A stretch of 64,000 nt of DNA, from positions 44,020,001-44,084,000 of the forward strand of contig NC_134468.1 of assembly GCF_964194025.1 (NCBI RefSeq). Direction: 5' to 3'. Within the stretch, counting starts at the first letter, position 1; the number at the start of each line of letters is the position of its first letter. Below are positions 103 through 35,360 of the stretch, piece after piece. A program made the position numbers and the translations under genes. Under the pieces are notes generated by a model, which saw nothing but the letters and a program-made list of their open reading frames with translations, was not told the origin of the DNA and did no database searches. The stretch is from Convolutriloba macropyga. Lineage: Eukaryota.

Positions 103-111
103 CTAAACAAA

Positions 112-11246: not shown

Positions 11247-11460
11247 TACCTGGGTCTAGAGTGTTTACTTTGTAATTTAATTTGTAAGCTCTTGCAAGAG
11301 ATAGTTAATTTTTCAAGAATCCTGCAAGAAAAAAATATTTTGAAAGAGCCTTGTAAGAAAAAGCTAATCTTGTCAGATATTGTGAAAATGTTGTAAGATT
11401 TAAAAATGACGAATAAGAATCTTCGAAGAATCTGACAAATTTTTGTTTTCGATTCGGGAG
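11247..11460. repeat. Decayed MITE-like element with (c)ttgcaaga/ttgtaaga internal repeats; also ~28874-29087 and ~62292-62450
   Basis: Begins tacctgggtc, ends ...gattcgggag; repeated tgcaaga/tgtaaga motifs. Boundaries approximate. Confidence 0.4.
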
Positions 11461-13570
11461 CACGCTATAAAAGTGAATCTAAACTGGCCTCTAATAAACT
11501 TTTTTTCTACTGTGAATGCTCTATTTGCAAATTCATGTTTTTAATACGTACCACTGACGCAAACAGGGAAACAATGAGCTGACTTTCAGCGATGATAAGT
11601 TTCATTACTAACAATTTTGAAAGAATTAAACTGCATATGTGAACACTGCTTCTGAAAAATAGGCATGTTACCTTTTTACATTTTGGTTTACAACTGTTAA
11701 CTGAATGTTGAAACGTTTTTCTCATTTTAAAACTGTTGATGTTCCTCATAACAATCTGGTTGTTCTACAAATCGAAAAAATCATTAAAAACTACTGCATG
11801 GATAGTTTTCCCACTATGTAGCCGATCAATTACGTAGCGTCTGGCCTGGTCAACATAGATCGCTACTTCATGGAACGAAATCGTCAACTCCAATAAGAGT
11901 AAAAGCACAAAGACAGATAAGAGCACAAAAACTGATAAAATAAAAAAAATAAATCAAAAACGCAGTTATGGCAATCCCAAGCTGAGGTCTGGAACCCTAT
12001 TTGAGTGTACATTTTTAGTAAAAAGACCTAAAAAGTCGAAAGGAAAAGGAATGTCTGCGCTTTGATTACATGTTCAAGGACACATACAAAATGGACCATA
12101 TATGGTACTTTAGCAGGACTATAAATGTTACCATAAAGGTTCCGTTTTACAGTAGAAAGAAAAAAATATTGAAAACCTTTTTATCATGAAACGGACCATT
12201 TCCGGTGCCGTGCTATTCATATCAAGATTATATATTAAATAAAATCAAGGCATTTATGGTCCATACATGGTCCCTTTGTGGTAATTAGGTTACTATTTAT
12301 GATAAGTAATCCAAACTGAGGTTCGCGACCCAAGGACCAAGAGAGAGAGATATACGACGAATTTGATTGCAGACAGGGGGTTCGGGTGTCATCGACCTAA
12401 TTTTCAGGACAAATTTTTGGTCGCAGCGTTTCATGTTGTCCATACCTGAATACCACATTTAGGTTTGAATTCGGTCTCTCCCGTAAACAATTTTGGGTCT
12501 CAACCGCAATCAATTTGATCTGTTCAGTATGGCCCAGGTCCACTATTGGTCGGGCTGGCTCACATCTGTTTTGTGTCTGTTCGGTTTGGTCCATAGCCAT
12601 TGTAAGATCTGCCTAAGAAGTGTAATAAATTTATTAGAAATGTATTAAAAGAGTTGGTTCTAATCAGAGTTCAAGTAAGTCCTGATCAAAACCAAGAACG
12701 CCAGTCTAAGACAAGAGCTTTCTGCAATTAATGGCCATTTTTGCAAGCAACAACTGATCTTTATCAACTAACCATCATAGTGATGGTTAAGAAGACACAC
12801 TGATTCAACCTCCAAAAACTGCATTTTTCTTACAATTGGCGGTTTTGATTTAAAGAACAGTAAGAAAGTCAACCTTACTTTTCGCTCAAAAATGAAACGT
12901 GAAATGAAATATTAAAATTTGTATGGTTCTCCATGGCTAAATCAGTCTGGTTTAGAGTGAACAATTTATGTTCGTTATGGCTAATGGCCTGGTTGGTGTG
13001 GCCCAGGGTGACCAAAATTCTCTGTTGGGTGAGGTCCAGGGCAGTCAGAGTCCGTTCAATCTGGCCCATACCTGCCTTCTTGTCTTTTCAATCTGGAACC
13101 TCCGTCCATGCCCAGAATCCGTTTGGCACCTACCTGTTTTGGGTCAAAGAACTGCTCCTGGGAAGTTGGATCAACACGGGCGTGGTTCAATTTCGTTTGT
13201 TTACTCCGTAACAATGCCTGTTTGAGGTGGTAAAACTTATGACAGGAAGAATTTTTTTAAGTTTTCAAGGCAAATTATTTGTATCATTGTCATTGACTTG
13301 GAACCAAAGAATTTTTTTAATTGGATATGCAGAAGAACTGTTCCAAATAAGTCGATTTCCTCTCAAGAAGAGCATCTCCCTCAAAAGAAGAATGACACTG
13401 TCAGCATTTTCGCAGTCCGACATTGTTCAAAGAGTGAGAGTTTTTTTAGACTTGAATGAGTGATGATAGTAGAAATTTTTGGTTGGAACAAACTCTTTAA
13501 TTATCTTTGCATCTTTGTTTTCATAATAATAGTAACTTCAAAAGCATTCCCAAACCTTTATTTCAGTATT

Positions 13571-13813
13571 TTATTCGATATCAGGTTGGGTGTAAATGTA
13601 TCCATCTGTAGGCTTGATTGCGGGGGGTAGACAAGCGGACCCGTCTCCATTTTGTGACTTCCAGCACACTGGCGTACTCGCACCACACTTACACTCGAAC
13701 TTGAAATTGTCCTTGGTCGCATCCAGACAATAAGCTCCCATGGAACAAACATCTGTGCTCTTGTACTCTGTCACCGAGTCAATTACTGGTGGTACCTCTT
13801 CATTTCCCTGGGT
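13571..13813 (-). CDS. Terminal exon of small six-Cys peptide (C-x5-C-x11-CxC-x6-C-x10-C, CART-like spacing)
   Basis: Acceptor gaatgtttag| then an open frame TQGNEEVPPVIDSVTEYKSTDVCSMGAYC...YIYTQPDIE*; AATAAA at and just after the stop; paralogs at 52305, 55199 and 57823. Confidence 0.75.
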   Translation of the reverse strand, partial: TQGNEEVPPVIDSVTEYKSTDVCSMGAYCLDATKDNFKFECKCGASTPVCWKSQNGDGSACLPPAIKPTDGYIYTQPDIE

Positions 13814-13975
13814 CTAAACATTCAAAAACATCCCAATGCTCGTTCCCAACTCTGCGCGATGTTTACTTTTTCATTAGCTCTTTTTCAAAAAGCGTCTGAA
13901 AACAAAAACCTGTTGCAGTAAAACGCAACTGTAAAGAAGAGGCAACTAAAACTAAAATAGGTTTAATTTTAATAT

Positions 13976-14467
13976 TATAACAACCCGGTAGGTATTAAAA
14001 AAAACGAACGTTTGAATTGCGAATGCGGGATTCGAGATTGGGTTGTTTTAGTTTTTTTTGTTGAAATTAACAACTTCAATTTAATTGATCTTACCTTGTT
14101 TTCTGTGCTCTATCTTTTTCTTTGGAAAATCGACAAAGTAAGTTTTCAGAATATTGAATTAAACTGAATAGGTTATTTATAAAAGCTTGTTGAGAAAAAG
14201 CTCAACTAACTGGATTGTAAGCAGAAAAGTCTCAAGTGTCGTTTGGGCGAAGGAACATGGCCAACGGAACAAATTCTCAATTAGCTCTTGAAACACGCAA
14301 AAGCTAAATAAATTGCGTGCCAAATTGTGTTATCAATAATAAATACACTATGGTCCAGTGGCACGAAAGTAAAACAAAGCTTGAGCGGAAAGGCGCTATA
14401 AGATTAATAGATTAATAGCTGGAACATTATACTGCCTAAGGAATAATAATGGGGTAGGGCTGTTACA
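13976..14467 (-). repeat. 3' LTR, copy 2 (492 bp)
   Basis: Differs from the 5' LTR by one substitution (plus strand aacatgg vs aacctgg) and one A-run length, by eye. Confidence 0.95.
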
Positions 14468-14478
14468 TCACCCCGCTT
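14468..14478 (-). promoter_or_regulatory. Putative polypurine tract (AAGCGGGGTGA); also 32095-32105
   Basis: Purine-rich run abutting the TG of the 3' LTR; short and interrupted. Confidence 0.55.
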
Positions 14479-14503
14479 AGGAAGGACATGTCCTCATGTC
14501 CCA

Positions 14504-15496
14504 CTATTCTGTCTCCGAACCCGATGAGGACGATGAGCTCGAAGAACGCGAGCGAGGCTTCCTTTTTATTTTCTTGTTTTGTGGATTATGATTTCCCCGA
14601 AGTAATTGAGAACGCAGGGAGCGGAATTCGTTTTGGAGACCTCTGAGGTGACGACAGGTCGTTGAACAGGACTCAGAGGCAGACATAGTGTCCGTATTCA
14701 CCCCTGCATTGCGGACCTTAGAGGATTTTGGCTTTTTAGGTTGTTTTTTCTCCAGCGTAACAACCTTCGCGGAGAGCAGACGATTTGCCGTCCGAGAATC
14801 ATCTAGCATTTGATTCAGCTCGGAAATGCGAGCTTTTAGTTTGTCGATCTCATTGGTAGCCTGGTAAAGGTCACGCTCGTGAGCCTCACGAGATCGACGA
14901 AGTCGAATAAGTTGATCTCGAAGGTCGCGATTTTCAGCCGAGTTGTCAACAGGGATAGCGACTAGATCCGCAGGATCCAGCAGAGGCCTTCGCCTTGCAT
15001 TGTAAGGATCCTGAAGGCGAACTTTCCCATTGCGGTAAAATTCAACAACCCGCAACACGGCATGCAAATTTGCTGAATACACCAAACCGTTGAGGCGTAA
15101 GGGACCGTTGCGAGGTGGACCCATAGCCTGGCGTGAATTGCTTCCTTCGAGCGGGCTGCTTCTCGAACCCGAAGCTGCTGTTGCAGAAGCAGTCTGAACG
15201 ACTGGAATGTTTTTGGAAGGCGGACAAAAGATGATTGTCATTTCATCCGAAGAAGCAGATGAGCAGACATCCGTGTGCGGCTGAGGATCCCGATTTTGCG
15301 AGAGGTTTTGACGGAACTCAAGCAACTGATCACTTGCCCAGTTGCCAGTTATTCCTGTATCTGCTTGAGAGTCCATACTATCGTCCAGCAACGGAATTGC
15401 AGGCGAAGAAGCACCTGAAAGAAGATCTGTGTCCAGAAGAATATCAGGGCCTGGAGAAGCAGGCATAGTGTTGATTGACTCTGAGCTTGTCGACAT
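14504..15496 (-). CDS. ORF4: 330-aa accessory protein of unknown function, copy 2
   Basis: Intact ORF between env and the 3' LTR. Ser/Pro/acidic N-terminus, heptad coiled coil (LRDQLIRLRRSREAH...LEKK), basic clusters, Arg/Ser tail; ATG preceded by ttgttttag. Confidence 0.85.
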   Translation of the reverse strand: MSTSSESINTMPASPGPDILLDTDLLSGASSPAIPLLDDSMDSQADTGITGNWASDQLLEFRQNLSQNRDPQPHTDVCSSASSDEMTIIFCPPSKNIPVVQTASATAASGSRSSPLEGSNSRQAMGPPRNGPLRLNGLVYSANLHAVLRVVEFYRNGKVRLQDPYNARRRPLLDPADLVAIPVDNSAENRDLRDQLIRLRRSREAHERDLYQATNEIDKLKARISELNQMLDDSRTANRLLSAKVVTLEKKQPKKPKSSKVRNAGVNTDTMSASESCSTTCRHLRGLQNEFRSLRSQLLRGNHNPQNKKIKRKPRSRSSSSSSSSGSETE

Positions 15497-15670
15497 CTAA
15501 AACAAGCAATGTCAATCATTTGTGTACAGAAGTGCATCAGGGCTGCTAGTGATTGATGAACGAAAAGAAAAAAATTTTGAATGAAGCAAAAGACAAAAAT
15601 CAGAAAGCGGCAGTTTTTTTTTTTTTTTTCTAAGACAGAACACTATAGGCGATAAAGAGTCAACCTGTGC

Positions 15671-17725
15671 TTAAATTTTTGTTGTGTAGCGGGCAGAATT
15701 TAATTGTGCTGACGGATAAATTGAATCAACTATTACAGTGCGATTATCAGGGTTCCCATCAGTTTCATTGACAAGTTGGTCATGATTGACAGGCGCAGAT
15801 GCGTGTATATTATTTATGTGATTTTGAAGCATCTGCGTAAAAGGCGCAATGGGGTTAAGAAGCCGGAAAACTGTCCAGAAAGGAACTCCATGAGAAAGGA
15901 GCCTAAGCGCAAATACAAGTTTCAATATATAGATAAAGAGCCCTAGAAGCGCTAAAGTTGTTAGCGTAATTACAGTGCACCTCTCGGCGTAGTACCAACC
16001 ACCACTCGCAACAGATTGCAAATCAATCAAATATTTCCAAGCCGCCAAATTTTCTAGTTCTTCGGAAACGCTTGGATTAAAATGCATTAAACCAGGATGA
16101 GAATATTGGCTGCGAGGATCAAGATATACTTCTCGTCCCGAAATTGTTCGGCGCGAGTATTTTAGAACCCGAGCCTTTGCGCTCTGCCTCAAGTTCTGAT
16201 AAGAAAAGAGACCAGCGGTGTGTAATGAAGGTAAGTTATCACTAAAATCTAGATGGCTGAAAACACTTAGAGATTCGGGCGTACGTGCGACCGAATAATC
16301 ATCTCCATAGTGCATCCAGATGCCTTCAGACGTGCGGTACATGTAAGGTGCTATGGGATCACAAGCAGTCAAAGTATAGTTTGGATACACAACTTGTGTT
16401 ATCGGATTCATGAAACGAATTTGCGTATCATTGCCCAAAAGAACAGGAACTTCCTCTGTGCAGTAGGGGAAGTCTGCAATTCGAGCTTCGACTTTAACAC
16501 ATTTGTGGACGTAAAGAACAGCTCCCGCTTTTTCAGCATGTGTGCCTAACATGGAACCGGATCCGAGGAAGAGATTAGGATTGTCCAAGTTTGACGCTAA
16601 AGAAATGAGTCCTTTTAAGATCATCTGACGCGTATTGCAAATTTCATTTTTGATGAAATTTACAATTCGTTGACGCGAAAGATGCGCGTTGACATGCACA
16701 AACTCAATTTTTGTCCCATAGACTAAGTTTGGAATTGCATCTGTGTTGTAATCTATTTCCGGAAGTTGCTCCGTTATAGGTTCAATGACAAAGTAAACAC
16801 CAGAGTAGGTTGTTGGTCGGACCTTATATGAGCAAACACTAACAGTTGTGTTCAGAAGTTCTATATAAAAGACGCGGGAATCATCCCTGGAAGCAGTTTT
16901 TCCACTCAAATACATTGAATCAGCAGAAGAGATCTGAACGCCAGGATGCTCCGGAGAGAACTCAAATATTGATTTAATCTCACACTGACCGTAGAAATGC
17001 GGTAAATAGGTGATTGAGTCATGCTGAAAGTCAGAACCTGGAAAACTGCAGGACGTGGATCTTTCATTGGGATCTGTCAAGATTAAGGAACATGGAGAGC
17101 TGGTTTTGTCCAAAGTTGCGACTACTTTGCCGATGGTTAGTTTTGCGTTTATAACACCAGATGCGTGAATTTTCGATCCACCTGGGGTAATCCAATCCAC
17201 AGGCCAGGTGAAGTAAATTCCAGCTTTCTTGCCACCACGCATGAAAGAGTACGAATAGTCAAATACCTTGAAATTGCCAGGTTTGTATGGTCTACCATCA
17301 AACAAAAGATCCCCCTCAGTCATTTTAAAATTTTCATCTGCAAAACCTGGAAGTTTGAAATTGCGACCACTCCAAATTGCTCTGCAAACCCAAGTTTCTA
17401 ATGCATAGAAAGTAGGCACTAGGCGAGAATACTCTTTTAAATACACAGAATCATCAAATCGGGCAGAATGCGCTAATCCGGTAACAGCGTAAGAAGCTTG
17501 AAACATGCAAAAACTCATTTGAATATCAACTTCGGGCGCATGAAGAACCAAACCACCAAAAGTAATGTTTTTGGTGCTTAATTTATCAGGCGTACACTGT
17601 TCACTCGGAAGAAGCGAGTAAATTTTTGTTGTGAGAACTTCCTCGATGTCATAGCCTACAAGTGTAGAGAAACTGCAATCTACTAGGCAAGTGAACAACA
17701 GCAACACTTGCTGCACAAAGAGCAT
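15671..17725 (-). CDS. env: env-like type I membrane glycoprotein (chuvirus/gB-type-like), copy 2
   Basis: Hydrophobic signal peptide, Cys-rich ectodomain with N-glycosylation sequons (NIT, NTT, NDT, NYT), C-terminal TM (VITLTTLALLGLFIYILKLVFAL); block GAVLYVHKCVKV..C.EEVPV..FMNPIT..T..CDP..P..Y...G.W recalled as chuvirus-G-like. Confidence 0.88.
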   Translation of the reverse strand: MLFVQQVLLLFTCLVDCSFSTLVGYDIEEVLTTKIYSLLPSEQCTPDKLSTKNITFGGLVLHAPEVDIQMSFCMFQASYAVTGLAHSARFDDSVYLKEYSRLVPTFYALETWVCRAIWSGRNFKLPGFADENFKMTEGDLLFDGRPYKPGNFKVFDYSYSFMRGGKKAGIYFTWPVDWITPGGSKIHASGVINAKLTIGKVVATLDKTSSPCSLILTDPNERSTSCSFPGSDFQHDSITYLPHFYGQCEIKSIFEFSPEHPGVQISSADSMYLSGKTASRDDSRVFYIELLNTTVSVCSYKVRPTTYSGVYFVIEPITEQLPEIDYNTDAIPNLVYGTKIEFVHVNAHLSRQRIVNFIKNEICNTRQMILKGLISLASNLDNPNLFLGSGSMLGTHAEKAGAVLYVHKCVKVEARIADFPYCTEEVPVLLGNDTQIRFMNPITQVVYPNYTLTACDPIAPYMYRTSEGIWMHYGDDYSVARTPESLSVFSHLDFSDNLPSLHTAGLFSYQNLRQSAKARVLKYSRRTISGREVYLDPRSQYSHPGLMHFNPSVSEELENLAAWKYLIDLQSVASGGWYYAERCTVITLTTLALLGLFIYILKLVFALRLLSHGVPFWTVFRLLNPIAPFTQMLQNHINNIHASAPVNHDQLVNETDGNPDNRTVIVDSIYPSAQLNSARYTTKI

Positions 17726-17734
17726 CTAAACAAA

Positions 17735-20700
17735 TCACTCAACATCACTGTCTGAATCAAAATAAGCTAAACGGAAAAATCCTGGATGCCGTGCATGATC
17801 AGCAACAGCTCTACGCGGTCGTTGAGGAACTGTTGTGGAACCTGAACCACTTTGATTTTCTGACAAAAAAACTGGCGGTGACGGAATGGCGGAACTTGTA
17901 GGGTTAGTAGTGTTTTGTAACCTATCAGAGGTAGAAGCCTGTCTTTCAGATAAATCAACCAACACAAGATCATCGTCTTCAGGGACGATGGGTTGAGGAC
18001 TTGGTCTTACAGTTTGGTTGGAACGATTTCTGCGCAACCGCTGGTCTGATGGTGTAAAAGGTTTAATGCGATCGTAATGAGCAATCTGTTGTTTTTGAGT
18101 TTTGACGTCTTGTAGAACAAAATTAATTTGGTTAATAACCTTTTTCACGCAATGAGGTCCAGACCAGAAGCTCTTTAATTTAGGAGTTTGACCCTGTGAG
18201 CACACTGGTGAATGAAGAAGCACCAGGTCTCCTTCTTTATACGAAGGACCATGCTTCTTTTTGTCAAAGATAGCTTTTTGTCGGCGCATTTCCCATCCGT
18301 TTTTCTGAATTACGGACTCGAAAATGGTGGAAGATTCAACTAAACGTTGAAAAACATAATCCCGATGACCAACAATTGGAGTGGGCAATGTTGGATATAG
18401 CATATCAACAGGCATGCGCATTTCTTTCCCAAAAACTAATCGGAAAGGCGATTGACCTGTCGACTCATGAACTGCAGAACGATAGGCCATCATGAAAGAT
18501 TGAAGATGAACAGACCAAACTTCATGCCGTTCTGCGCAGTACTTTGCCAACCCATCTTCCAAAGTGCGATTTATGCGTTCCACTTTTGCATTTCCTTGCG
18601 GGTGGTAAGGAGTAGATCTTGAGCTGGTTAACTGCAGCTTATTGCACATATCTGCGAAAAGGCGCGATGTGAACTGCGAACCGTTGTCACTGTGAATATA
18701 TTCAGGTACACCAAATCGGGTGACCCATTGATCTAAGAAAGTGCTACAGATTGTCTCAGCCTTAATGTTCTGTAGGGGTGCAGCCTCGAACCAGCGAGTA
18801 AAATGGTCTCCAATCATTAGGATGTATTTATAAAATTTCTCATTCAACCGACTTTCTGGGAGAGGGCCAAGGATATCAACTGACACGCAAAGAAAAGGTT
18901 CATAGAATGCCCAGAGCTGCATTTCTTGCTGATGTGATTGTTTTGGATTCTTTCGTTTTTGACAAGTTGCACAACCTGAGATCCAGGAGTCCACATCATT
19001 TTTCAATCCTGGCCAGTAAAATCGCTGACGTACCCGATCAAGAGTTTTCTTATTGCCTAAATGTCCTGAAGCAGGTGAATCATGCAACTGAAGAAGAACT
19101 TTTTGAACCTGGTTAAGTGGAACGCAACACTGATGGAAAAGTGTAGATCCATCCAGTTGTTGAAATAGCCGGTACAAAACACCATCAATAATTTTCAATG
19201 TCTCGAATTGCTGCCAGTAACACTGCAAAGCAGATGGTCTACCAAACATTAAGGATCGAGGTGGTTTCTCACCTGTTCGACACCATGATTTGACTACAGA
19301 CAGAGTTTTATCCTGATCTTGCGTTTCTGAAAAGTGCGGAGACGAAGAAACAGATGTGACAGAAGTAGCAGATAAATTCAAAGGTGGTAATCTGGAAAGA
19401 GCATCAGCATTTGCAATAGTTTTTCCAGGCCGATGGACAATTTCAAAATTGAACATACTTAATTTTTCTAGCCAACGCGCTACTATTGCATCAGGCTCTT
19501 TGAACGAATAGAGCCAAACGAGGGCGCGATGGTCAGTAATTATCTGAAATTTTTGCCCAAGAAGAAATTCTTTGAAGTATGATGTGAAGAACACCACAGC
19601 AAAGAGTTCACGTTTCGTAGCCGAGTAGTTTCTTTGACCTTTTTGCAGCACTTTGCTAGCATATGCAATAACCTTTTCACCATTTTTCTGTTTTTGAGAT
19701 AGCACTGCGCCAATTCCAGTAAGCGATGCGTCAGTACAAAGAACGAATTGATCCTTTTCATTTGGAAAACCTAAGATTGGAGCGGATACTAGCGCTGTTT
19801 TCAATTTCTCGAAAGCTTTTTGGCAGTCTGCTGTCCAATGGAACGTTGTTGTTTTATTCATCAATTGGTACAGAGGGTTCGCAATCAAACCAAAATTGAG
19901 AACAAACTTTCTATAGAAGCCAACAAGGCCCATGAACGATCTTAACTGACGAATAGTTTGTGGAACTGGGTATTTCTCCACAGCTGCTATTTTAGCAGGA
20001 TCAGTGTGTATCCCGTCAGCAGAGACTACATGACCCAGAAATACTAACTTCGTTTGGAATAAGGAACATTTGGCAGGTGAAATTTTCAAATTTGCTTCCC
20101 GTATGCGTTGGAACACAAGTTGAAGACGATGTATGTGTTCCTCGAAAGAACGACCAAAGACTATAATATCATCAAGATAAACCAGGACAATTTCATATGT
20201 CAACCCTGATAAAACAATTTCCATTAGTCTTTGAAATGCTCCAGGGGCATTGCAAAGACCCATTGGCATCCGTTTCCACTGATACAGTCCAAACGGCGCA
20301 ATGAAAGAAGTAAGGTGTCGATCTTCTTCATCAATCTCCATTTGATGAAATCCACTGCAAAGGTCGAGGCTAGAGAAGAAAATGCTTCCCTCGAGATTAT
20401 TTAGAATATCTGATATGCGCGGAAGAGGCCACGATGTTTTGACTGTTTGGGCATTTAGTTTCCGATAGTCAATAACAAGACGATATGACCCGTCACGTTT
20501 CGGAACTAACACGGTTGGAGCTGCCCACTCGGAATGAGTAGGAGATATGAGATCTTTTTCTTGGAGTTTGGTTATCTTATCCTTGAGATCTTTTCTTTTA
20601 GAAGGATTCATTGATCTGTATGGCACTCGGCTAGGCTGGGCGTCATCTTTCAACTGAATACGCAGTTTATGCAAATTACATGAGCCTAGATCCCATTTGT

Positions 20701-21604
20701 CGGTAGCAAACACGTCTGCAAACTGCTTGAGTAGACTAAAAGCGTCCTTTTGTTGTTTTTTAGTGAGAGTGCTGAACTTTGATTTAAACAACTGCATCAA
20801 AGTTTCAGCTGAATTGATGTCAACAGCATTGAAACCAACAGTTTGAAGGACAGTCTCGTTGTAGGGTAAGATTTGCGCAATAGTTTGCGAAGGATATAAA
20901 GTTACGGAATTACAAGTAGGGTTAAGTACTCTTAGCCAAAATTCATTTTGAGAAACTGTTACAAGAGACGAGGCCACTAAAAGGGAGTTTAAACTGGTGA
21001 AACCTACGTGGGGCTCAACCAAACCCACAGTCGCGTCAGACGAAGTACGCGAACTGCTTGAAGAAAACTTATGCGCATGATGTGACTTTAGATTACATTT
21101 TACGAGTGCTTCACTTCGAGGTGGAATAAGGAAACGCGAAGTTACAGAACAAAGCGAAGTCTCAGTTGTCGGAGAATTATCCTCAAACCACTGAGACAAC
21201 GGACTGATACATTCCAGTACTGCGTCACCTACATCTAATAAACCCCGAGAGAAGTCTACTGCACATTTTTGTTTGTGTAGGAGATCAAAACCGACCACAC
21301 AAGGAACACTGAGGTGGGCACAAATGTAAAATTTGAAAGAAAACATGGGACCATTTTTAAACCAACGACATGGAAGCAAGCACATACCCTTAAATTGAAG
21401 CATAGAGCCATTTATGGCGGATGCTTGGATATCAGATGCTTCCAATGTAAGCGAAGGGCTAAAGTTGCTGAACTTGCCAAAAACATCGGCACGAATTACA
21501 CTAATTGAAGCACCTGAATCAATCAGGGCAGGCAGTATATTATCGGCGATTATTATTTTGGAAAGAAGCGACTGTATGCCAAAAATACGCTTGTTTTGTG
21601 CCAT
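17735..21604 (-). CDS. pol: Pol polyprotein, copy 2
   Basis: As copy 1, with two aa differences (SLMFGRP, GQTPKLK). Confidence 0.98.
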   Translation of the reverse strand: MAQNKRIFGIQSLLSKIIIADNILPALIDSGASISVIRADVFGKFSNFSPSLTLEASDIQASAINGSMLQFKGMCLLPCRWFKNGPMFSFKFYICAHLSVPCVVGFDLLHKQKCAVDFSRGLLDVGDAVLECISPLSQWFEDNSPTTETSLCSVTSRFLIPPRSEALVKCNLKSHHAHKFSSSSSRTSSDATVGLVEPHVGFTSLNSLLVASSLVTVSQNEFWLRVLNPTCNSVTLYPSQTIAQILPYNETVLQTVGFNAVDINSAETLMQLFKSKFSTLTKKQQKDAFSLLKQFADVFATDKWDLGSCNLHKLRIQLKDDAQPSRVPYRSMNPSKRKDLKDKITKLQEKDLISPTHSEWAAPTVLVPKRDGSYRLVIDYRKLNAQTVKTSWPLPRISDILNNLEGSIFFSSLDLCSGFHQMEIDEEDRHLTSFIAPFGLYQWKRMPMGLCNAPGAFQRLMEIVLSGLTYEIVLVYLDDIIVFGRSFEEHIHRLQLVFQRIREANLKISPAKCSLFQTKLVFLGHVVSADGIHTDPAKIAAVEKYPVPQTIRQLRSFMGLVGFYRKFVLNFGLIANPLYQLMNKTTTFHWTADCQKAFEKLKTALVSAPILGFPNEKDQFVLCTDASLTGIGAVLSQKQKNGEKVIAYASKVLQKGQRNYSATKRELFAVVFFTSYFKEFLLGQKFQIITDHRALVWLYSFKEPDAIVARWLEKLSMFNFEIVHRPGKTIANADALSRLPPLNLSATSVTSVSSSPHFSETQDQDKTLSVVKSWCRTGEKPPRSLMFGRPSALQCYWQQFETLKIIDGVLYRLFQQLDGSTLFHQCCVPLNQVQKVLLQLHDSPASGHLGNKKTLDRVRQRFYWPGLKNDVDSWISGCATCQKRKNPKQSHQQEMQLWAFYEPFLCVSVDILGPLPESRLNEKFYKYILMIGDHFTRWFEAAPLQNIKAETICSTFLDQWVTRFGVPEYIHSDNGSQFTSRLFADMCNKLQLTSSRSTPYHPQGNAKVERINRTLEDGLAKYCAERHEVWSVHLQSFMMAYRSAVHESTGQSPFRLVFGKEMRMPVDMLYPTLPTPIVGHRDYVFQRLVESSTIFESVIQKNGWEMRRQKAIFDKKKHGPSYKEGDLVLLHSPVCSQGQTPKLKSFWSGPHCVKKVINQINFVLQDVKTQKQQIAHYDRIKPFTPSDQRLRRNRSNQTVRPSPQPIVPEDDDLVLVDLSERQASTSDRLQNTTNPTSSAIPSPPVFLSENQSGSGSTTVPQRPRRAVADHARHPGFFRLAYFDSDSDVE

Positions 21605-21661
21605 GGGTTATTAAAAATGGAGAACAAACTCTTTCAAGGTGGACTATGGCGATAGAAGAAG

Positions 21662-22678
21662 CTATCGGTTAGAGTATGGTTTTGACTCTGGGCAATTACG
21701 TCGCTGATGTTGAGAAGAACCACAGTTCCAACAATTTTTGCAATTATTTTTAGTATGACCTTTACGATTACAACCATAACAAATAGTTGGTCCGGTGAAC
21801 CTAACTTTTCTTTCATTACTGATTGAACGACTGTGTGAATTGTCAAGAAACGTTTTTCGCGGAGAGGAAGATTGACGACGTTCTCCGTGTTGCGATGGGC
21901 TACGAGAGAAAGTAGGTGACTTGCGTTTGTTAAACGGAGACAATCTGTAAGGAGAGTTGCTCCTGCGACCCGATTTTTTGTTCATCGGACGAGAACGTGG
22001 TTGGTAACTAACTTGTCCGGCCATGAGTTTATCAACTTTACGCGAAAGTGCTTCAATGGAACTCACAGAAGTAGATGAAGGCGCAGTCTCATTTGCATTT
22101 GCTTCAAGACGGTAAATTGCGTCGAAGTGGAGTGCTGATTCTAAGGCCGCGTTAATGTCAGCCGGCTTGTTCTTTCTTAACTCTACCCTTACATGAATAT
22201 TGTGAAGGCCATCAATGAAAGATTGAAGCACAATATGGTCTCTGATTGCCTGCGTGTCTTGGGGATAAGCCTTATTAGCTAGAAGTTTGAGCTCAGCTAA
22301 AAATTCACTTACTTTTTCGGACTCGCCTTGAATACGTTTTGCAAGGGATGACCGAAAAAATTCAGGAGGTTCCTGATATTGGCGCAAAAATTGCTTTTTA
22401 AGCTCTGAATAATCATTTTTTGTTGCGTCATCTAATGACTGATAAAATTCGATAGCACTGCCTCGTAAGCGCAAGGGAAAAATAGTATGACGCTTATCAA
22501 TGTAAACCTGTTGACCAGCGCTGTCGTGTTGCGGAGTTCCATCACTATTGAATGCTTTTTTAAGCCAATTTTGTAACGAACTCAAGAGTTCGAATTGTGT
22601 TATATAGGCCTGAATATCACTTGTTCCGTTAAAAGGCTCCGGTAGAAGAAGTTTAGCTTCCAGAGCTGCGTCAGCCAT
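21662..22678 (-). CDS. gag: Gag, copy 2
   Basis: Same protein as copy 1. Confidence 0.95.
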   Translation of the reverse strand: MADAALEAKLLLPEPFNGTSDIQAYITQFELLSSLQNWLKKAFNSDGTPQHDSAGQQVYIDKRHTIFPLRLRGSAIEFYQSLDDATKNDYSELKKQFLRQYQEPPEFFRSSLAKRIQGESEKVSEFLAELKLLANKAYPQDTQAIRDHIVLQSFIDGLHNIHVRVELRKNKPADINAALESALHFDAIYRLEANANETAPSSTSVSSIEALSRKVDKLMAGQVSYQPRSRPMNKKSGRRSNSPYRLSPFNKRKSPTFSRSPSQHGERRQSSSPRKTFLDNSHSRSISNERKVRFTGPTICYGCNRKGHTKNNCKNCWNCGSSQHQRRNCPESKPYSNR

Positions 22679-23236
22679 TTTTTATTAATTACATGGAAAT
22701 AAAAAATGCTGCACAAAGTTCCAACCTTGCGATTGGACCGGCAAGTCAGATATCGGTTGTTCAAAATTGTGGGGACCAGAAAAAGCTGGCCTCTAAGAGA
22801 TAACAGAAAAGAACGCAGAGACTTTTTTTAACTTAGGATTTCAGGTCTCTCGTCTTAAGTTATGTATCGTTGAGGTTGCCGTAGCAGCCGCCGAAACCTC
22901 CCTTGCTAAGCCCCTTAGTCTTACTACGTGGGACCTACAAACACTGGGAATGTAGAAGCTGCGGAAGCAAGGAGCGTCTATTTTCCGATAAATCGGATAA
23001 CGCTTGAGAAGCCTCTGAAATCAGTACCTATTTGTCAAAGCGTTCTAAAGTTAAAGGCAATTATGGCTCATCTAAGAAAAAGAACAACCGTTATCTGTCA
23101 AGCAGATAACAAAAACGACCGAATATTTGAGTTATTTTTCTCTTTTTTTTTTTTTGTTTTTTTTTTTTTGAAAAGAAGGTAAAGAAAAAGCAGATGTTCC
23201 TGAAAATTGCAGGATAGCTTATTTTGGAAAAAAAAA

Positions 23237-23254
23237 ATCCCGAACCTGTCAACA
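23237..23254 (-). promoter_or_regulatory. Putative non-canonical primer-binding site TGTTGACAGGTTCGGGAT; also 5612-5629 and 40860-40877
   Basis: Begins 1 nt after the 5' LTR; 18 nt ending in GGGAT(T), the usual complement of a tRNA T-arm; starts TGT rather than TGG. Confidence 0.55.
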
Positions 23255-23255
23255 A

Positions 23256-23746
23256 TATAACAACCCGGTAGGTATTAAAAAAACGAACGTTTGAATTGCG
23301 AATGCGGGATTCGAGATTGGGTTGTTTTAGTTTTTTTTGTTGAAATTAACAACTTCAATTTAATTGATCTTACCTTGTTTTCTGTGCTCTATCTTTTTCT
23401 TTGGAAAATCGACAAAGTAAGTTTTCAGAATATTGAATTAAACTGAATAGGTTATTTATAAAAGCTTGTTGAGAAAAAGCTCAACTAACTGGATTGTAAG
23501 CAGAAAAGTCTCAAGTGTCGTTTGGGCGAAGGAACCTGGCCAACGGAACAAATTCTCAATTAGCTCTTGAAACACGCAAAAGCTAAATAAATTGCGTGCC
23601 AAATTGTGTTATCAATAATAAATACACTATGGTCCAGTGGCACGAAAGTAAAACAAAGCTTGAGCGGAAAGGCGCTATAAGATTAATAGATTAATAGCTG
23701 GAACATTATACTGCCTAAGGAATAATAATGGGGTAGGGCTGTTACA
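23256..23746 (-). repeat. 5' LTR, copy 2
   Basis: Direct repeat; followed by the ATAT target duplication. Confidence 0.95.
23359..23460 (-). promoter_or_regulatory. LTR signals: TATA box TATAAATA (23460-23453), splice donor AAG|GTAAGA (exon end 23374), poly(A) signal ATTAAA (23364-23359)
   Basis: Motifs read on the minus strand in U3-R-U5 order; present in all five LTRs. Confidence 0.6.
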
Positions 23747-26700
23747 ATATATCGACAGTCTGTATAATAAGCCGACAACACAAAAAGGTTCCACTTGATT
23801 GCTCAAAGCTCATTAAATAATAACAACAAACCCAAAAATTAAAAACAGAAAAATGAACCCAGAATCAGCTGCCGGTCTTCAGCTCTTAGACATTCTAAAC
23901 CTACAAAAGCACTAGAACCTGTATATTTTGGTAAAGGCCAAGCATCTTTGATACCCATTAAATTGATCGGTTATTGTAAATGCCTACTAATCGGCGTGAA
24001 GAAACAAATCAATTTTTTGACAACAACGTTTGATTAAAATTTTAAAATAAAAATAAATTCTTAGCTATCAAGAAGAAGTCAAGCCCATTTTTTGTATAAT
24101 TGCATCAAGTATAAAAACCGTGTATTAAATCAGAAAATCAGTTACAGAAAGAATGAAACTTATGATTAACAATGCTCTAATTGTGAGCCACCACCACTAT
24201 TCAACTGCCCCCCCCCCCCCCACCACCACCACTATTCAGACCACCCCACTATTCAATTGTTCTTCTATATCGCAAAATTTATTAAAAGAAAAAATTGAGT
24301 TGGACAGTCAAAGTAGCTTTCAATAGACTAAGCATCAGGACACGCCAACATGTTGGTAGGTACGCTCTGTCTTACCAGCAGAAAAAAGGCGTCACTAACA
24401 AATTTAAATTTGTAAAAACCTCTGAAAAAGTACAAAAATCAAGCATTATATGTATTTCTCAAAAGTAAATAATAGAGATATAATCAAGTCTAATTTTTTG
24501 CTTTTGTAAGAAAGACCAAAAAAGTACCATGGTTCAAACAGTTTAATTCCTAATTTAATGTAGCCACCAATTTGAATCTAAGTTTCATTAAAAATTCTGA
24601 ACCGGTTCTAGACGAAGTCAGAACCGCACTGCTTATCAAGTTTAATATTTGTTGACTGTAACTGCTTCAAAAGTCCTAATTTAGATAGCAATCATTTTTT
24701 CATTTTATTCCAAATCCAAATTGCGGCAAAATAACCCAAGGTTGGTAGTTTTGCTGTAATTTTTTAAGTTTTCTAAATTCTCTGTCAATAACTTGAAATA
24801 GAAATTCAAATTTCTACAGAATAAAATGAAAAGGAAAATTTTAAATTTTTTTCTACATAAAAAACAGTGGGTGAAGAGATATCAGATTGGATAAAAAAAC
24901 AGTTTCTCGGGCGCATAACGAAGATCTGCTTGTTGATGTTTTGTTTAATGAAAGAAAACCAATTTTTCAAGTCTTTTTCTTTGTTAAAGACTCGCTCATC
25001 AGAATATCTTTGTTTTACAAATTAATCAAAAAAAAAGCTTTTATGAAATTAAAGGTATCAAAAATTCTCTGATAAATCACTTTTCTGCTATCTATGATCT
25101 GCAGAGCTAGGTTTAAATTTTAGGGCGTTATCTTTATTATTTTTAGTAAATAAAATATATAATTATTTGTTTGATAACATTTAACATTAATCAACGATGT
25201 TTGACTTTAGTACAATTTGCAATTAATTATTCAAATTCAAAAAATAGTCTAACCTTTGTACGTAATATATAATGCCAGAACAATGAATAGAACTACCGCT
25301 AAAAGACTGTCTCTGAAAAAATTGGTCCTTCTGTCTTCCAATTGATTTAATTACAAAACTTAAAAATTTCTGGATTCAATTGATCTTTGGAACAAAAAAC
25401 AAAAGCGTTTTTTAAGCATCAGATCCAAAATGAAATTTTATTCTTCCGAGAAAAAATGCTCAAAATGAGGAATCAGAAGAACTATTTCTGTTACTACTGC
25501 TACTTTTCTATGCTTTTTTGCAAAAATGGTATTCTTCAACAAGAGGTTGCGAAATATGAAATTTAATGGCTTCGACACAAAATCGTAGTCTGCATTAACT
25601 GAACATCTCAAACAACTCTTTTAAAAATATTGGCAAGCAGTCGTAGCATTGACTGAGTTTGAGGTGCTGACCGAAAGTCGATGCGTCCAAACCGAAATGA
25701 AAGCACAAGGGGGGGTATTGCGCGTTCAAAAATACACGGTCCAAACGTGGGGATTTAATAAAAAATGTTTCAATATTAAAGTGTAGTCAAAGGGGATGCA
25801 AATTTAACAGAATAAAGAACTGATAACAACGCAGCAAATCAAATTTCCACAAATAATTTTAAGGAAAGGAATATATTATTATTCATACTTTTTCAACTAC
25901 TAACTTTGGTTTTTTAAAAGTAAAAATTTACAAATTTGGGTTATACTATACGTAATCCTGATAAATTTGATAAAAATAATTTAAAGTTTTTTCAAATTAT
26001 GTTTTGTAAGTCACCGATTATACTTTAAATGATTTTGCCTAGAGTCCAAATACGACTGAAAAAATTGATATTTGAAATCATTCCTTTTCAAAAATACAAA
26101 AATATATATCATCAAATTTAACAACTAATGACTTGATACAAATTTAAATGTCGTTTTTCAAGTAATGTAAAGTTAAATTCAGAATTATATTCTTGGTTTT
26201 TAACAGATGAAAGCTAATGATCTCTTTTTTGAAAGCTAACTAAATCAAACATACTAAATCATTATCAACTTAAATTTAGAAACAATAGAGATTTTTTTGT
26301 CGGTATGAAACAATTCTGGATGCTGAGTTATTTTTCATTTTGAATTTTTTATGCGTTTGTTCTCCCTTCATTGAAAATAAATTGCTCTCATTGCAACTTC
26401 CCCCTCGTAACTTCTTCTCTCTCAAATTTCTACACTGGCTTATTTTATTTTTCGACTCACATTGTTGGGGGAGGAACCATGAACTCAAATGGGTTTTTTG
26501 TTCATTAATTTTTGGACTATTGATATAATCATTGTAGAGATTTGTCAGTAATATCATTAGAAAGGCCTTTTAACATAGAATATAGAAATAAGATATTTTT
26601 TTGAAATTCTTTTTTTTCCACAGAATTATCGATTATTAAAATTTTCTGATCATTTGTAGGCAATTCAGTTGTTTTATTTCACAGTTTATCAATTTTTGCT

Positions 26701-29700
26701 TATGTTTGTGTCAAACTTACTCAATATAGTATGTTAAAATTGTTAGCGAACTTTTTCATGCTCTGAAATTTCAGGATTGACTAAACTTCCGGTTCGGATT
26801 GTAAAACCTGCTGTTTTTTTAAATTTTTTTTCAATTTTTATGCTCTTTTCGATCACTTTAAAACAATTACCGGAACAGCATTACAAAGGAATGACGTTAA
26901 ATTACCTTAAAAAATTGACGTGCAAATGAGTTGCCAGGAGCGCTTATCTTGTTCAGGAAAAAGTTCAAAGTTTTTGTGGCTTCGGCACTTTGCTCGAGTA
27001 AAACTTCTTTCTCGAAATTTGTGTTTTCTCAGTTGTCTTTGTTTAGTGGTCTAAAAATTTCGTCTCGCCAATTAAATGTCCAATTAGCGTCTTTTGGAGT
27101 GAAGGAGCTAATTTATTTAGTTTTTTGATGACAACTTGTTCAAGCTTGTTGATTTGATTGTTTTCAAAAATATTTGTTTGCAAAGCAAAAAAGTAGTACA
27201 TTTTTGATATTTTGACGTATTTTCAATTAATTTCTGTCAACTTATAGCTCAATTCGGGTAGAGAGCTTACATCATTCACTAACGAAATAAAAGTTAGTTT
27301 TAACTGCATGTTACGTTTTCAATTATGATTTTTAGGCTTTGAGACTAAAAGGTTCCACATTTACGTATATCAAATTTCTGAAGTTTGTACACTTGTTTTT
27401 AGTGTCATGTCACACCATAACTATAATTGCAGAACACATAAAAAACGGTGGTTTCTAAACGGCGATTGAAATTATCAAGCGTTTCTAGTCAATAGGTTTT
27501 GGTTTTAACGGCTTCGACGCCTATTTGTTGCAAAGCTCAATTTAATTTTTGATTTATTGCTATATCTGTCATTTTTTGTAGTCATAAGAAATATTTACGA
27601 TAATGAACATTTTTGGAAGGTGCCATTTAACCACTTTAAATTTTTAATTCTATGGCTAAAGGTTTTCTTGACATTGAACTTTTTTCTATCAGAAAAAATC
27701 ATTGTAATTTTGAACTTTTTCGGCTTTTTTTCCTTTTTTCCTTATTTCAGGTAGATTTTTGCTTAGATTCATCATTGTCAGCTTTCTTGCTGCCAAATTT
27801 GGTTTTTAATTATCCTTTTTCCTAGAAGAAATTGGTTTTCTGGCTTCTATTTTACAAACTTTCTTGAAACTTTTTGTGACTTGGGGGTTTGTCAAATTGA
27901 AAACCAATTTAAAAGACCCGCTGGCGTCGAATGCAGGCCTATTCATTTATATGTCATTTTATACTAGGTAAAAGTTGAGGATATTAGTGGCTTGGGCACT
28001 AATTTTTATCAAACTTTTTTTGAAGTTTCCATTGTTTTCACAATTTGTTGTCTTTTAATAGTTGTTAGACATATTCTGTATAATAAGAGGTCTCGATGGC
28101 TTCTCTAGGAATATAAAAGAAACATTTAATCATTTCAGTTGATTGCTAAAAGTTTTTATGGCTCTTAACTTTTCAGTTTTTCAAAAAAATTGAAACTCTT
28201 TTTTCTGATTTTTCCATTTGCGTTCTTGTTTTGTGAATTGTAAGTTTTCAGGTCGTGTTTAGTGTTTTTTTGAGATCCCATTTTTACCTTGCTAATTTTT
28301 TTTAAAAATTAACATCTAGTTTTGGTCGTAGTAAATGTTTGGTTTTGTTATTTGTTTTTTTTCTTGTCTCATAGTCTTGTTAATGGCATGTCCCATTGGC
28401 CCTCTCAACGGCCTTGTTTAATTAGTTTAGCGGTTTGAGTGAAAGGCATTTTTTCACTCATTAATTATTTTTCTGAGATAGCTGTAATTTTTTTTAAAAA
28501 AATCTTCAAGTCTCCTCCTCTTTTGGAAGACAGTTAAATCAAAAATGTGGATCAGCGGGTCGGTACCTAATGTGCAAACACACATTACCGAGACTCATTG
28601 TATTATGTCTTACCATATCCCTGGTGAGTCAAATTTATTAATCGCAATGTCATATACAGACCAACCAAAATGTTGTTTCTGAACTTTTTATGTCCCTTAA
28701 ATATTCTCATGTGATTTAAGAAGCGATTATTTTTAATTCATAAAGCATTACAAGCGTATCTATAGTAGATCTGGTTTGATTAGTACTACCCGTGGCCGTA
28801 GGAATCTCCAAAAGGGTAATGTTTCTTCTTGCACAGTGGGGTATGTCACGTTCGGGTATTATTAACATTTTTTTACCTGGGTCTAGAGTGTTTACTTTGT
28901 AATTTAATTTGTAAGCTCTTGCAAGAGATAGTTAATTTTTCAAGAATCCTGCAAGAAAAAAATATTTTGAAAGAGCCTTGTAAGAAAAAGCTAATCTTGT
29001 CAGATATTGTGAAAATGTTGTAAGATTTAAAAATGACGAATAAGAATCTTCGAAGAATCTGACAAATTTTTGTTTTCGATTCGGGAGCACGCTATAAAAG
29101 TGAATCTAAACTGGCCTCTAATAAACTTTTTTTCTACTGTGAATGCTCTATTTGCAAATTCATGTTTTTAATACGTACCACTGACGCAAACAGGGAAACA
29201 ATGAGCTGACTTTCAGCGATGATAAGTTTCATTACTAACAATTTTGAAAGAATTAAACTGCATATGTGAACACTGCTTCTGAAAAATAGGCATGTTACCT
29301 TTTTACATTTTGGTTTACAACTGTTAACTGAATGTTGAAACGTTTTTCTCATTTTAAAACTGTTGATGTTCCTCATAACAATCTGGTTGTTCTACAAATC
29401 GAAAAAATCATTAAAAACTACTGCATGGATAGTTTTCCCACTATGTAGCCGATCAATTACGTAGCGTCTGGCCTGGTCAACATAGATCGCTACTTCATGG
29501 AACGAAATCGTCAACTCCAATAAGAGTAAAAGCACAAAGACAGATAAGAGCACAAAAACTGATAAAATAAAAAAAATAAATCAAAAACGCAGTTATGGCA
29601 ATCCCAAGCTGAGGTCTGGAACCCTATTTGAGTGTACATTTTTAGTAAAAAGACCTAAAAAGTCGAAAGGAAAAGGAATGTCTGCGCTTTGATTACATGT

Positions 29701-31197
29701 TCAAGGACACATACAAAATGGACCATATATGGTACTTTAGCAGGACTATAAATGTTACCATAAAGGTTCCGTTTTACAGTAGAAAGAAAAAAATATTGAA
29801 AACCTTTTTATCATGAAACGGACCATTTCCGGTGCCGTGCTATTCATATCAAGATTATATATTAAATAAAATCAAGGCATTTATGGTCCATACATGGTCC
29901 CTTTGTGGTAATTAGGTTACTATTTATGATAAGTAATCCAAACTGAGGTTCGCGACCCAAGGACCAAGAGAGAGAGATATACGACGAATTTGATTGCAGA
30001 CAGGGGGTTCGGGTGTCATCGACCTAATTTTCAGGACAAATTTTTGGTCGCAGCGTTTCATGTTGTCCATACCTGAATACCACATTTAGGTTTGAATTCG
30101 GTCTCTCCCGTAAACAATTTTGGGTCTCAACCGCAATCAATTTGATCTGTTCAGTATGGCCCAGGTCCACTATTGGTCGGGCTGGCTCACATCTGTTTTG
30201 TGTCTGTTCGGTTTGGTCCATAGCCATTGTAAGATCTGCCTAAGAAGTGTAATAAATTTATTAGAAATGTATTAAAAGAGTTGGTTCTAATCAGAGTTCA
30301 AGTAAGTCCTGATCAAAACCAAGAACGCCAGTCTAAGACAAGAGCTTTCTGCAATTAATGGCCATTTTTGCAAGCAACAACTGATCTTTATCAACTAACC
30401 ATCATAGTGATGGTTAAGAAGACACACTGATTCAACCTCCAAAAACTGCATTTTTCTTACAATTGGCGGTTTTGATTTAAAGAACAGTAAGAAAGTCAAC
30501 CTTACTTTTCGCTCAAAAATGAAACGTGAAATGAAATATTAAAATTTGTATGGTTCTCCATGGCTAAATCAGTCTGGTTTAGAGTGAACAATTTATGTTC
30601 GTTATGGCTAATGGCCTGGTTGGTGTGGCCCAGGGTGACCAAAATTCTCTGTTGGGTGAGGTCCAGGGCAGTCAGAGTCCGTTCAATCTGGCCCATACCT
30701 GCCTTCTTGTCTTTTCAATCTGGAACCTCCGTCCATGCCCAGAATCCGTTTGGCACCTACCTGTTTTGGGTCAAAGAACTGCTCCTGGGAAGTTGGATCA
30801 ACACGGGCGTGGTTCAATTTCGTTTGTTTACTCCGTAACAATGCCTGTTTGAGGTGGTAAAACTTATGACAGGAAGAATTTTTTTAAGTTTTCAAGGCAA
30901 ATTATTTGTATCATTGTCATTGACTTGGAACCAAAGAATTTTTTTAATTGGATATGCAGAAGAACTGTTCCAAATAAGTCGATTTCCTCTCAAGAAGAGC
31001 ATCTCCCTCAAAAGAAGAATGACACTGTCAGCATTTTCGCAGTCCGACATTGTTCAAAGAGTGAGAGTTTTTTTAGACTTGAATGAGTGATGATAGTAGA
31101 AATTTTTGGTTGGAACAAACTCTTTAATTATCTTTGCATCTTTGTTTTCATAATAATAGTAACTTCAAAAGCATTCCCAAACCTTTATTTCAGTATT

Positions 31198-31440
31198 TTA
31201 TTCGATATCAGGTTGGGTGTAAATGTATCCATCTGTAGGCTTGATTGCGGGGGGTAGACAAGCGGACCCGTCTCCATTTTGTGACTTCCAGCACACTGGC
31301 GTACTCGCACCACACTTACACTCGAACTTGAAATTGTCCTTGGTCGCATCCAGACAATAAGCTCCCATGGAACAAACATCTGTGCTCTTGTACTCTGTCA
31401 CCGAGTCAATTACTGGTGGTACCTCTTCATTTCCCTGGGT
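31198..31440 (-). CDS. Terminal exon of six-Cys CART-like peptide, array copy
   Basis: Same as 13571-13813 at offset 17627. Confidence 0.75.
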   Translation of the reverse strand, partial: TQGNEEVPPVIDSVTEYKSTDVCSMGAYCLDATKDNFKFECKCGASTPVCWKSQNGDGSACLPPAIKPTDGYIYTQPDIE

Positions 31441-31602
31441 CTAAACATTCAAAAACATCCCAATGCTCGTTCCCAACTCTGCGCGATGTTTACTTTTTCA
31501 TTAGCTCTTTTTCAAAAAGCGTCTGAAAACAAAAACCTGTTGCAGTAAAACGCAACTGTAAAGAAGAGGCAACTAAAACTAAAATAGGTTTAATTTTAAT
31601 AT

Positions 31603-32094
31603 TATAACAACCCGGTAGGTATTAAAAAAAACGAACGTTTGAATTGCGAATGCGGGATTCGAGATTGGGTTGTTTTAGTTTTTTTTGTTGAAATTAACAA
31701 CTTCAATTTAATTGATCTTACCTTGTTTTCTGTGCTCTATCTTTTTCTTTGGAAAATCGACAAAGTAAGTTTTCAGAATATTGAATTAAACTGAATAGGT
31801 TATTTATAAAAGCTTGTTGAGAAAAAGCTCAACTAACTGGATTGTAAGCAGAAAAGTCTCAAGTGTCGTTTGGGCGAAGGAACATGGCCAACGGAACAAA
31901 TTCTCAATTAGCTCTTGAAACACGCAAAAGCTAAATAAATTGCGTGCCAAATTGTGTTATCAATAATAAATACACTATGGTCCAGTGGCACGAAAGTAAA
32001 ACAAAGCTTGAGCGGAAAGGCGCTATAAGATTAATAGATTAATAGCTGGAACATTATACTGCCTAAGGAATAATAATGGGGTAGGGCTGTTACA
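31603..32094 (-). repeat. 3' LTR, copy 3
   Basis: Carries the same 3'-LTR-specific variants as copy 2. Confidence 0.95.
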
Positions 32095-32130
32095 TCACCC
32101 CGCTTAGGAAGGACATGTCCTCATGTCCCA

Positions 32131-33123: not shown

Positions 33124-33296
33124 CTAAAACAAGCAATGTCAATCATTTGTGTACAGAAGTGCATCAGGGCTGCTAGTGATTGATGAACGAAAAGAAAAAA
33201 ATTTTGAATGAAGCAAAAGACAAAAATCAGAAAGCGGCAGTTTTTTTTTTTTTTTCTAAGACAGAACACTATAGGCGATAAAGAGTCAACCTGTGC

Positions 33297-35351: not shown

Positions 35352-35360
35352 CTAAACAAA

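Follow-up and report, generated by a model that had tools for sequence, protein, structure and literature searches.

A 64,000-nucleotide (nt) stretch of the Convolutriloba macropyga genome (contig NC_134468.1, forward-strand positions 44,020,001 to 44,084,000; hereafter, the window) carries on its minus strand, at 23746-13976, a 9.77 kb long terminal repeat (LTR) element with four open reading frames (ORFs): gag, pol, an env-like ORF and ORF4. This LTR retrotransposon is of the Gypsy type, young and present in many copies, and its pol is cut off from gag by a short spacer with several stop codons. As judged from the sequences compared here, this uncoupling is a real, inherited and clade-wide feature that was not caused by decay, and Pol is very probably translated as a separate protein. 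The features of the gag-pol junction, in window coordinates, are as follows.

21662..22678, minus strand: gag, 338 amino acids (aa), with a Retrotrans_gag domain, C-terminal zinc knuckles and a TAG stop
21668..21676, minus strand: TACTCTAAC, branch-point-like, coding for Y-S-N of gag; degraded in distant subfamilies
21650..21667, minus strand: 6-bp inverted repeat CGATAG / CTATCG that takes in the gag stop codon, with weak covariation across the A clade
21605..21661, minus strand: gag-pol spacer, 57 nt, with in-frame TAG, TAA and TAA and no ATG
21644..21646, minus strand: TAG, the second in-frame stop and a candidate 3′ splice site; TGA in loci L033/L040
21605..21631, minus strand: conserved pyrimidine/U-rich 27 nt, ending in TAA TAA CCC and abutting the pol ATG
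17735..21604, minus strand: pol, 1289 aa, with its own ATG, a DSG protease motif at residue 29, reverse transcriptase (RT) and RNase H, as well as integrase

The preliminary description of this DNA had reported that gag and pol share a frame and are parted by the gag TAG and by further TAG, TAA and TAA in a 57-nt spacer, and the ORF coordinates bear this out: the stops lie at 21646-21644 (TAG), 21613-21611 (TAA) and 21610-21608 (TAA), followed by CCC ATG, and the nearest ATG upstream of the pol start is 173 nt away. The gag ORF ends 8 residues past its last Cys, and close Gag homologues (from a search restricted to 185-592 aa) also stop a few residues after theirs. In the window copy, which belongs to the family that we call A, the -1 frame is open from the gag end through the spacer to about pol codon 22, so two shifts could close the gap, but no X XXY YYZ heptamer occurs within 150 nt upstream of the pol ATG in family A.

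The preliminary description had added that the spacer is the same in three copies of the element in the window. This is so; however, the three copies represent one insertion that was tandemly duplicated, so that their agreement alone says nothing.

1..43364: tandem duplication with a period of ~17,625 bp, 99.9% identical, containing all three element copies
3982..4038, minus strand: spacer of the first duplicated copy, the same as 21605..21661
39231..39287, minus strand: spacer of the third duplicated copy, the same as 21605..21661

Positions 1-25741 match 17624-43364 at 99.9%, and the flanks of the element are the same in all three copies. For the 17.6 kb tandem triplication over 1-43364 itself, a real duplication and an assembly artefact are both possible.

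A DNA search for family copies gave 62 candidates, of which 40 were scored; the 30 loci returned from these 40 all have the identical spacer, stops included. Six further copies out of six keep every stop as well, one of them with a single base change that spares them all. The stops are thus shared by 36/36 family copies, 33 of which come from 13 contigs other than that of the window; two of these 33, L016 and L017, are 9 kb apart and may be a single event. Two copies retrieved by env alone (L109 and L110) are truncated or deleted at the junction. An unbroken 1290-codon pol frame is present in 25 of the 46 copies with at least 98% identity in the pol N-terminus. The empty insertion site of the window element is visible as a joint in three of four public sequencing runs (X1-X4), which behave as DNA, with even cover over the element and its flanks (one study, at most two samples); no splice-type joint was seen at the spacer in these runs, which, being DNA reads, bear on DNA only. 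Since the stops are present in 36/36 copies, pol frames are intact, the two LTRs differ at 2 positions and the empty site is seen, the family must have spread with this junction. Independent members with a continuous or single-frameshift gag-pol, which had been named as the sign of locus-specific decay, were not found inside the clade.

Forty more divergent junctions were fetched, 33 of them in older A subfamilies, family B (L046 type) and family E (L043, L059). Together with one window copy these 33 make a set of 34, of which all except L045, L059 and L062 were parsed, and the divergent set reaches ~35-45% identity in the pol N-terminus. The pol-start ATG is kept in 29/31 parsed junctions, and a pol-frame stop lies no more than 9 nt from it in 26/31; in the other five the stop is at -33 (four) or -63 (one). 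Spacer lengths (57-60 nt in the A clade, 44-50 nt in family B, 44-85 nt overall) fall in all three frames, although most divergent copies are decayed, which makes single lengths unsure, and in about seven the script set the gag end at the wrong place. Seven Pol database clusters, P0001-P0007 (56-100% identity), begin with a Met that stands 28-29 residues ahead of the protease Asp, and this Met is invariant while residues 2-6 are variable. A metagenome scan added six distant loci at 28-37%, and a viral scan retrieved no related loci. It is the closed frames, the invariant Met, the varying frame offset, the absence of a slippery site in family A and the absence of a usable fusing acceptor that argue for a separate Pol.

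The remaining parts of the window element are given below.

23256..23746, minus strand: 5′ LTR, 491 bp; 490/491 aligned bases are the same as in the 3′ LTR, with one indel
23368..23373, minus strand: strong candidate 5′ splice donor AAG/GTAAGA in the 3′ part of the LTR, its use as a donor being presumed
15671..17725, minus strand: env-like ORF, 684 aa, matching PF24664 (Monjiviricetes fusion glycoprotein) with an E-value of 1.8e-20
14504..15496, minus strand: ORF4, 330 aa, with a coiled-coil-like middle and a basic/serine-rich tail
13976..14467, minus strand: 3′ LTR, 492 bp

As in Ty3/Gypsy LTR retrotransposons, there are two LTRs and a likely target-site duplication (ATAT at both ends), and the Pol domains follow the Ty3/Gypsy order of protease, RT, RNase H and integrase, the protease itself having scored in Pfam for one related family only (family D, below). 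Named database matches of Pol include K02A2.6-like, “Gypsy retrotransposon integrase-” and transposon 297-related entries; our trees contained no curated Gypsy references. The zf-CCHC match of Gag is slightly below the curated cut-off, and two Cys-His motifs are visible by eye. The env-like ATG lies directly behind TTTGTTTAG, 9 nt past the pol stop, and that of ORF4 directly behind TTGTTTTAG. ORF4 produced no Pfam match, and an ESM Atlas search gave nothing above 0.82. With a viral fusion glycoprotein as its third ORF, the element falls among the env-carrying gypsy elements (“errantivirus” in the wide sense of PMC13524379). The LTR terminus reads ...TTATA in the window copy (23256-23746) and ...TTACA in L076 and L079/L080, and the primer-binding site starts with TTGTTGAC in the window copy and with TTGGTGAC in family B.

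A tree built from 761 columns of RT-RNase H-integrase (20 rows, midpoint root) placed families A and B together with P0003-P0007 on one side of a branch with support of 100/99; an earlier quick tree had given an SH-aLRT (approximate likelihood-ratio test) value of 94. The sister clade of A/B (100/99) comprises families C and D. In family D, gag-pol is a single open frame of 1686 codons. In family C, pol overlaps gag in the -1 frame, an arrangement absent from family A, and T TTA AAC in the gag frame with an 11-bp stem 8 nt on (L072:2501-2560) is likely a -1 frameshift signal. Related env genes are present in all four families. Gypsy elements as a rule make a fused Gag-Pol, and on the basis of this rule and of the tree the gag-pol uncoupling is likely a derived state. 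The four families also vary in ORF4: in C and D its end is formed by a DnaJ domain (PF00226) with an HPD motif (L073:8806-9723, E-value 8e-17; L074:8605-9444, 8e-14), and in A and B, where gag and pol are uncoupled, it has no DnaJ match and its tail is basic and serine-rich. One family B copy, L046 (1-788, 9113-9901), is preceded by an ORF4 end and an LTR that match its own 3′ end in kind, the arrangement of head-to-tail elements with a common LTR.

How would a separate Pol be made? Splicing, in cis or in trans, is the route that we tentatively propose from the sequence features, at somewhat less than an even chance. Full-length RNA would yield Gag only, and a small share of transcripts would be spliced, in cis with the conserved donor of the LTR or in trans with the spliced leader (SL) of the host. 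The joining would use a weak acceptor 5-40 nt ahead of the pol ATG, and Pol would stay scarce as a result; which acceptor is used may vary by family, and it need not be 21643. The env and ORF4 messages would be produced likewise, their ATGs in family A abutting host-like TTTAG acceptors, and Pol would reach particles by binding genomic RNA or Gag and not as a fusion.

Several observations are in line with splicing. The LTR donor is retained in otherwise diverged LTRs: subfamilies L082, L076/77 and L079/80 and family B (L046) have a GTRAG donor about as far from the end of the LTR, and none is found at the corresponding LTR position in L078 and L081. A YAG lies 25-45 nt upstream of the pol ATG in 25/34 junctions, and textbook acceptors are present at the junction in family E (L043, L059). 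Acceptors of host exons in the window end in TTTAG or CTTAG and resemble those that abut the family A start codons of env and ORF4. The sequence of a spliced leader from an acoel is printed in bioRxiv 10.1101/2022.08.27.505549, and genome-wide it has 2,847 matches with at most three mismatches (control, 0); in all six loci read, it is followed by varied sequence and never by GT, and the SL RNA gene was not among these six. Going by these genomic matches, the host is thus likely an acoel that uses SL trans-splicing; a search for cellulose synthase, made with a tunicate host in mind, gave no match. Because the host genome carries the leader, trans-splicing joins cis-splicing and reinitiation as a candidate route. 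Four pattern searches of the genome retrieved no leader-headed or LTR-spliced retrocopies; these are weak tests, since few copies of this kind would be expected. The internal deletions of L110, L024 and L016 lack GT..AG ends, and the break in L110 lies in a short repeat.

The leader is also carried at the 5′ end of a family resembling long interspersed nuclear elements (LINEs), with ORF1 and an endonuclease-type ORF2 (PF03372, slightly under the cut-off). Thirty of 42 matches were fetched, and the leader is present on 22 of the 23 copies that reach the 5′ end. Eight joints are direct and 14 run through a short extra piece, mostly TAG-ending, with two forms 6 nt apart. This pattern is the one expected from repeated trans-splicing and suggests a non-LTR element whose 5′ end would be regained by that route in each cycle.

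The distribution of conserved positions in the spacer is less favourable to splicing. The last 27 nt are identical at 21-25 positions (78-93%) to those of four distant-subfamily copies, whose fourfold sites stand at 38-50% (Fisher p<0.0005, for a window that was picked after viewing the alignment, is anchored on the ATG and is AT-rich). Family B, too, has a pyrimidine-rich stretch and a TAA ahead of its pol ATG; since 12.6% of the element's 22-nt windows are equally pyrimidine-rich, pyrimidine richness alone is weak evidence. The following points weigh against the proposal. The middle 18 nt of the spacer, with the AG at 21644, are identical at just 6-9 positions, and 9-nt sliding windows in distant subfamilies give 0.13-0.27 around this AG vs. 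0.82-0.93 beside the ATG. In L033/L040 the second stop is TGA, so the stop is kept but the AG is lost, and the AG is also replaced in L037/L042. Between families A and B the spacer is not conserved above fourfold sites. No YAG is present at -45..-25 in 9/34 junctions, including both the L033/L040 copies and L039/L061, and chance by itself often puts a YAG into a 20-nt window (~40% by our estimate). The TAG of family B has no preceding pyrimidine tract, and its env ATG has no adjoining AG; the conserved tract lies downstream of the candidate AG and mostly ends in TAA, an AG being found within the last 12 nt before the pol ATG in just 6/34 junctions. It may be that only env and ORF4 are served by the LTR donor. 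In L038/L039 there is an ATG at -29 that is out of frame, and for P0003-P0007 the uncoupled state is read from the Met start of the protein sequence.

Splicing at 21643, as proposed in the preliminary description, is therefore not established, the AG being poorly conserved and family B lacking the tract. The two sequences named there as its signals, TACTCTAAC and CTTCTTCTATCGCCATAG, are both present, but the former lies in gag-coding sequence. The conservation check suggested there came out divided: the stops passed it in every family copy, while the AG at 21644 belongs to the least conserved part of the spacer, and some subfamilies lack it. Speculatively, the loss of the AG could be reconciled with splicing by a weak acceptor at the tract end (TAA in most junctions, AG in six). 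In a more elaborate form, this env-bearing Gypsy clade would have dropped the Gag-Pol fusion, and its genomic RNA would be cut by the SL trans-splicing of the host into separate pol, env and ORF4 messages, with a deliberately weak acceptor that possibly consists of a pyrimidine tract and TAA instead of TAG; we regard this version as improbable. The conserved tract could also shield the RNA from nonsense-mediated decay, by analogy with a Rous sarcoma virus element that is said to do so (PMC10309623).

The same data can be read without splicing. Pol may be translated from unspliced genomic RNA if, after the gag stop, a few ribosomes rescan the ATG-free spacer or enter at the U-rich element, which we consider a serious but rather unlikely alternative. 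It directly explains why conservation sits in the 27 nt abutting the ATG and not at the AG, and reinitiation is suited by the spacers of families A and B, which are short (44-60 nt), unstructured and mostly free of ATG, by pol/env stop-start overlaps (TGATG in family B, TAATG in family C) and by the hairpin at the stop codon of gag. Across the A clade, 88.9% of the cells of this inverted repeat are paired (reached in 3/500 shuffles), covariation was matched in 1/500 and double changes occur in 2/6 pairs; the other three of five measures gave 14/500, 157/500 and 175/500, and the sequences are related. Precedents are the Pol of cauliflower mosaic virus (CaMV) and of duck hepatitis B virus and non-LTR elements (PMC5902531), as well as the 37-nt spacer of TART-B1 and LINE ORF2 (PMC5009743). 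However, known stop-start elements overlap or almost touch, whereas 44-85 nt separate gag and pol here (57 nt in the window copy); the upstream ATG of L038/L039 and the strong acceptors of family E also speak against it, and RNAalifold predicted no consensus pairs at the junction, which folds no better than shuffles (z -0.55; -2.2 to +1.5 for the 34 spacers). A suspected second hairpin before the pol ATG failed both in folding and in RNAalifold, and what looked like a third-position pattern when the spacers of family A and L039 were compared was absent in other subfamilies, by eye in the alignment. Under translation from genomic RNA, Pol could bind its own RNA in cis. Initiation of a capped pol RNA at an internal promoter near the gag end has little probability in our estimate. 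The conserved tract has an initiator-like YYANWYY, which we take to be the consensus of such elements; this motif is degenerate and lost in family B, and a suitably placed TATA-like box is, by eye, absent from family A. Precedents are the junction of Tca2, with its weak promoter activity (PMC7175516), and the internal env promoters of Oikopleura Tor3b/4b (PMC4402516).

Two frameshifts, a ribosomal hop, readthrough of several stops or removal of an Ogre-type intron could still yield Gag-Pol, and such a fusion would solve the packaging of Pol. In family A and in most copies of family B, the -1 frame runs through the spacer without a stop, the hairpin that holds the stop resembles that of T4 gene 60 bypassing, and in L044 the pol frame is open back into the gag end. 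We nevertheless think a fusion quite unlikely, because family A has no slippery heptamer, the frame of the spacer varies, and Met is invariant while its neighbours are not. A fusing intron fares no better: no AG position or phase past the pol ATG is conserved, and in the 17 family B junctions the first AG past the ATG, at +55 or beyond +75, would cut the conserved protease. The last alternative, that the stops are decay and the family is mobilised by the Pol of another family, could appeal to the non-independence of the window copies and to the coupled gag-pol families in the same genome; it is largely refuted, and is by far the least probable of those considered, given the long unbroken pol frames in many copies, the same arrangement throughout the clade and the 70% identity of families A and B at pol codon positions 1-2 against 26-27% at fourfold sites.

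As for the surroundings of the element, it is inserted beside a tandem host gene family whose repeated terminal exons on the minus strand (13574-13813, 52308-52574, 55202-55483, 57826-58107) encode a cysteine-rich module, EGF-like by appearance only. Minus-strand fragments at 50972-51620 resemble what we take to be a Tc1/mariner-type transposase.

Precedents for a separate or spacer-split Pol exist in Tyl3, foamy viruses, CaMV and hepadnaviruses. The Gag of the foamy viruses (Spumaretrovirinae) has no Cys-His zinc knuckles; they share with the element a Pol set apart from Gag with its own start, here seen at the DNA level, and differ as Retroviridae, the Gag of the element having zinc knuckles and its env being chuvirus-related. 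Their spliced pol mRNA has been shown, and a suboptimal splice site was proposed to set the Pol level (PMC7828637). The foamy-virus-like label of the preliminary description thus fits the outcome, a separate Pol, but is one of several analogies. In CaMV and hepadnaviruses, Pol is made apart from the capsid protein and without a spliced pol mRNA (PMC5902531); unlike the element, these are non-integrating pararetroviruses that use reinitiation or shunting on one RNA. In Tyl3, a Ty3/Gypsy element of Yarrowia lipolytica, GAG and POL are parted by a 324-bp stop-filled spacer, and the mechanism is given as not known (PMC5014426). The likeness is a gag/pol spacer with several stops; Tyl3, however, is one full-length copy in a yeast, without env, whereas here the spacers have 44-85 nt and there are dozens of copies, in a conserved env-bearing clade that has a fourth ORF. 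A division into two ORFs by a non-coding spacer is also described for Ogre and Bianca, the Ogre spacer being, unlike ours, an intron past the protease whose removal fuses the ORFs (PMC6317226). Tca2, with one stop, belongs to the copia elements (PMC7175516); TART-B1 and LINE ORF2 have a similar two-ORF split but are non-LTR, and some sireviruses have a closed pol frame and a stem-loop (both from PMC5009743). With the invertebrate env-carrying Ty3/gypsy elements of PMC13524379 the element shares the gag-pol-env order, multiple copies and a chuvirus-related glycoprotein beside a gypsy pol; the words “acoel”, “Xenacoelomorpha”, “frameshift” and “splic” are absent from the main text of that paper, and its supplements may list relatives. 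In the open literature searched, we found no description of this clade, nor of a Gypsy element whose pol RNA is spliced or trans-spliced.

A Gag-Pol fusion sets the Gag:Pol ratio, brings the enzymes into the capsid and delays activation of the protease. Since the fusion serves these three roles, a clade that lacks it must have replaced all three. The question of Pol expression can be addressed with ordinary RNA data. If host trans-splicing were the route, the element would be a retroelement operating like a trans-spliced operon, with a route of Pol packaging independent of that of the foamy viruses. Within a single genome, related families with env show three states, a single ORF, a -1 overlap and a separate ATG, which offers a natural comparison for the origin of foamy-virus-like Pol expression.

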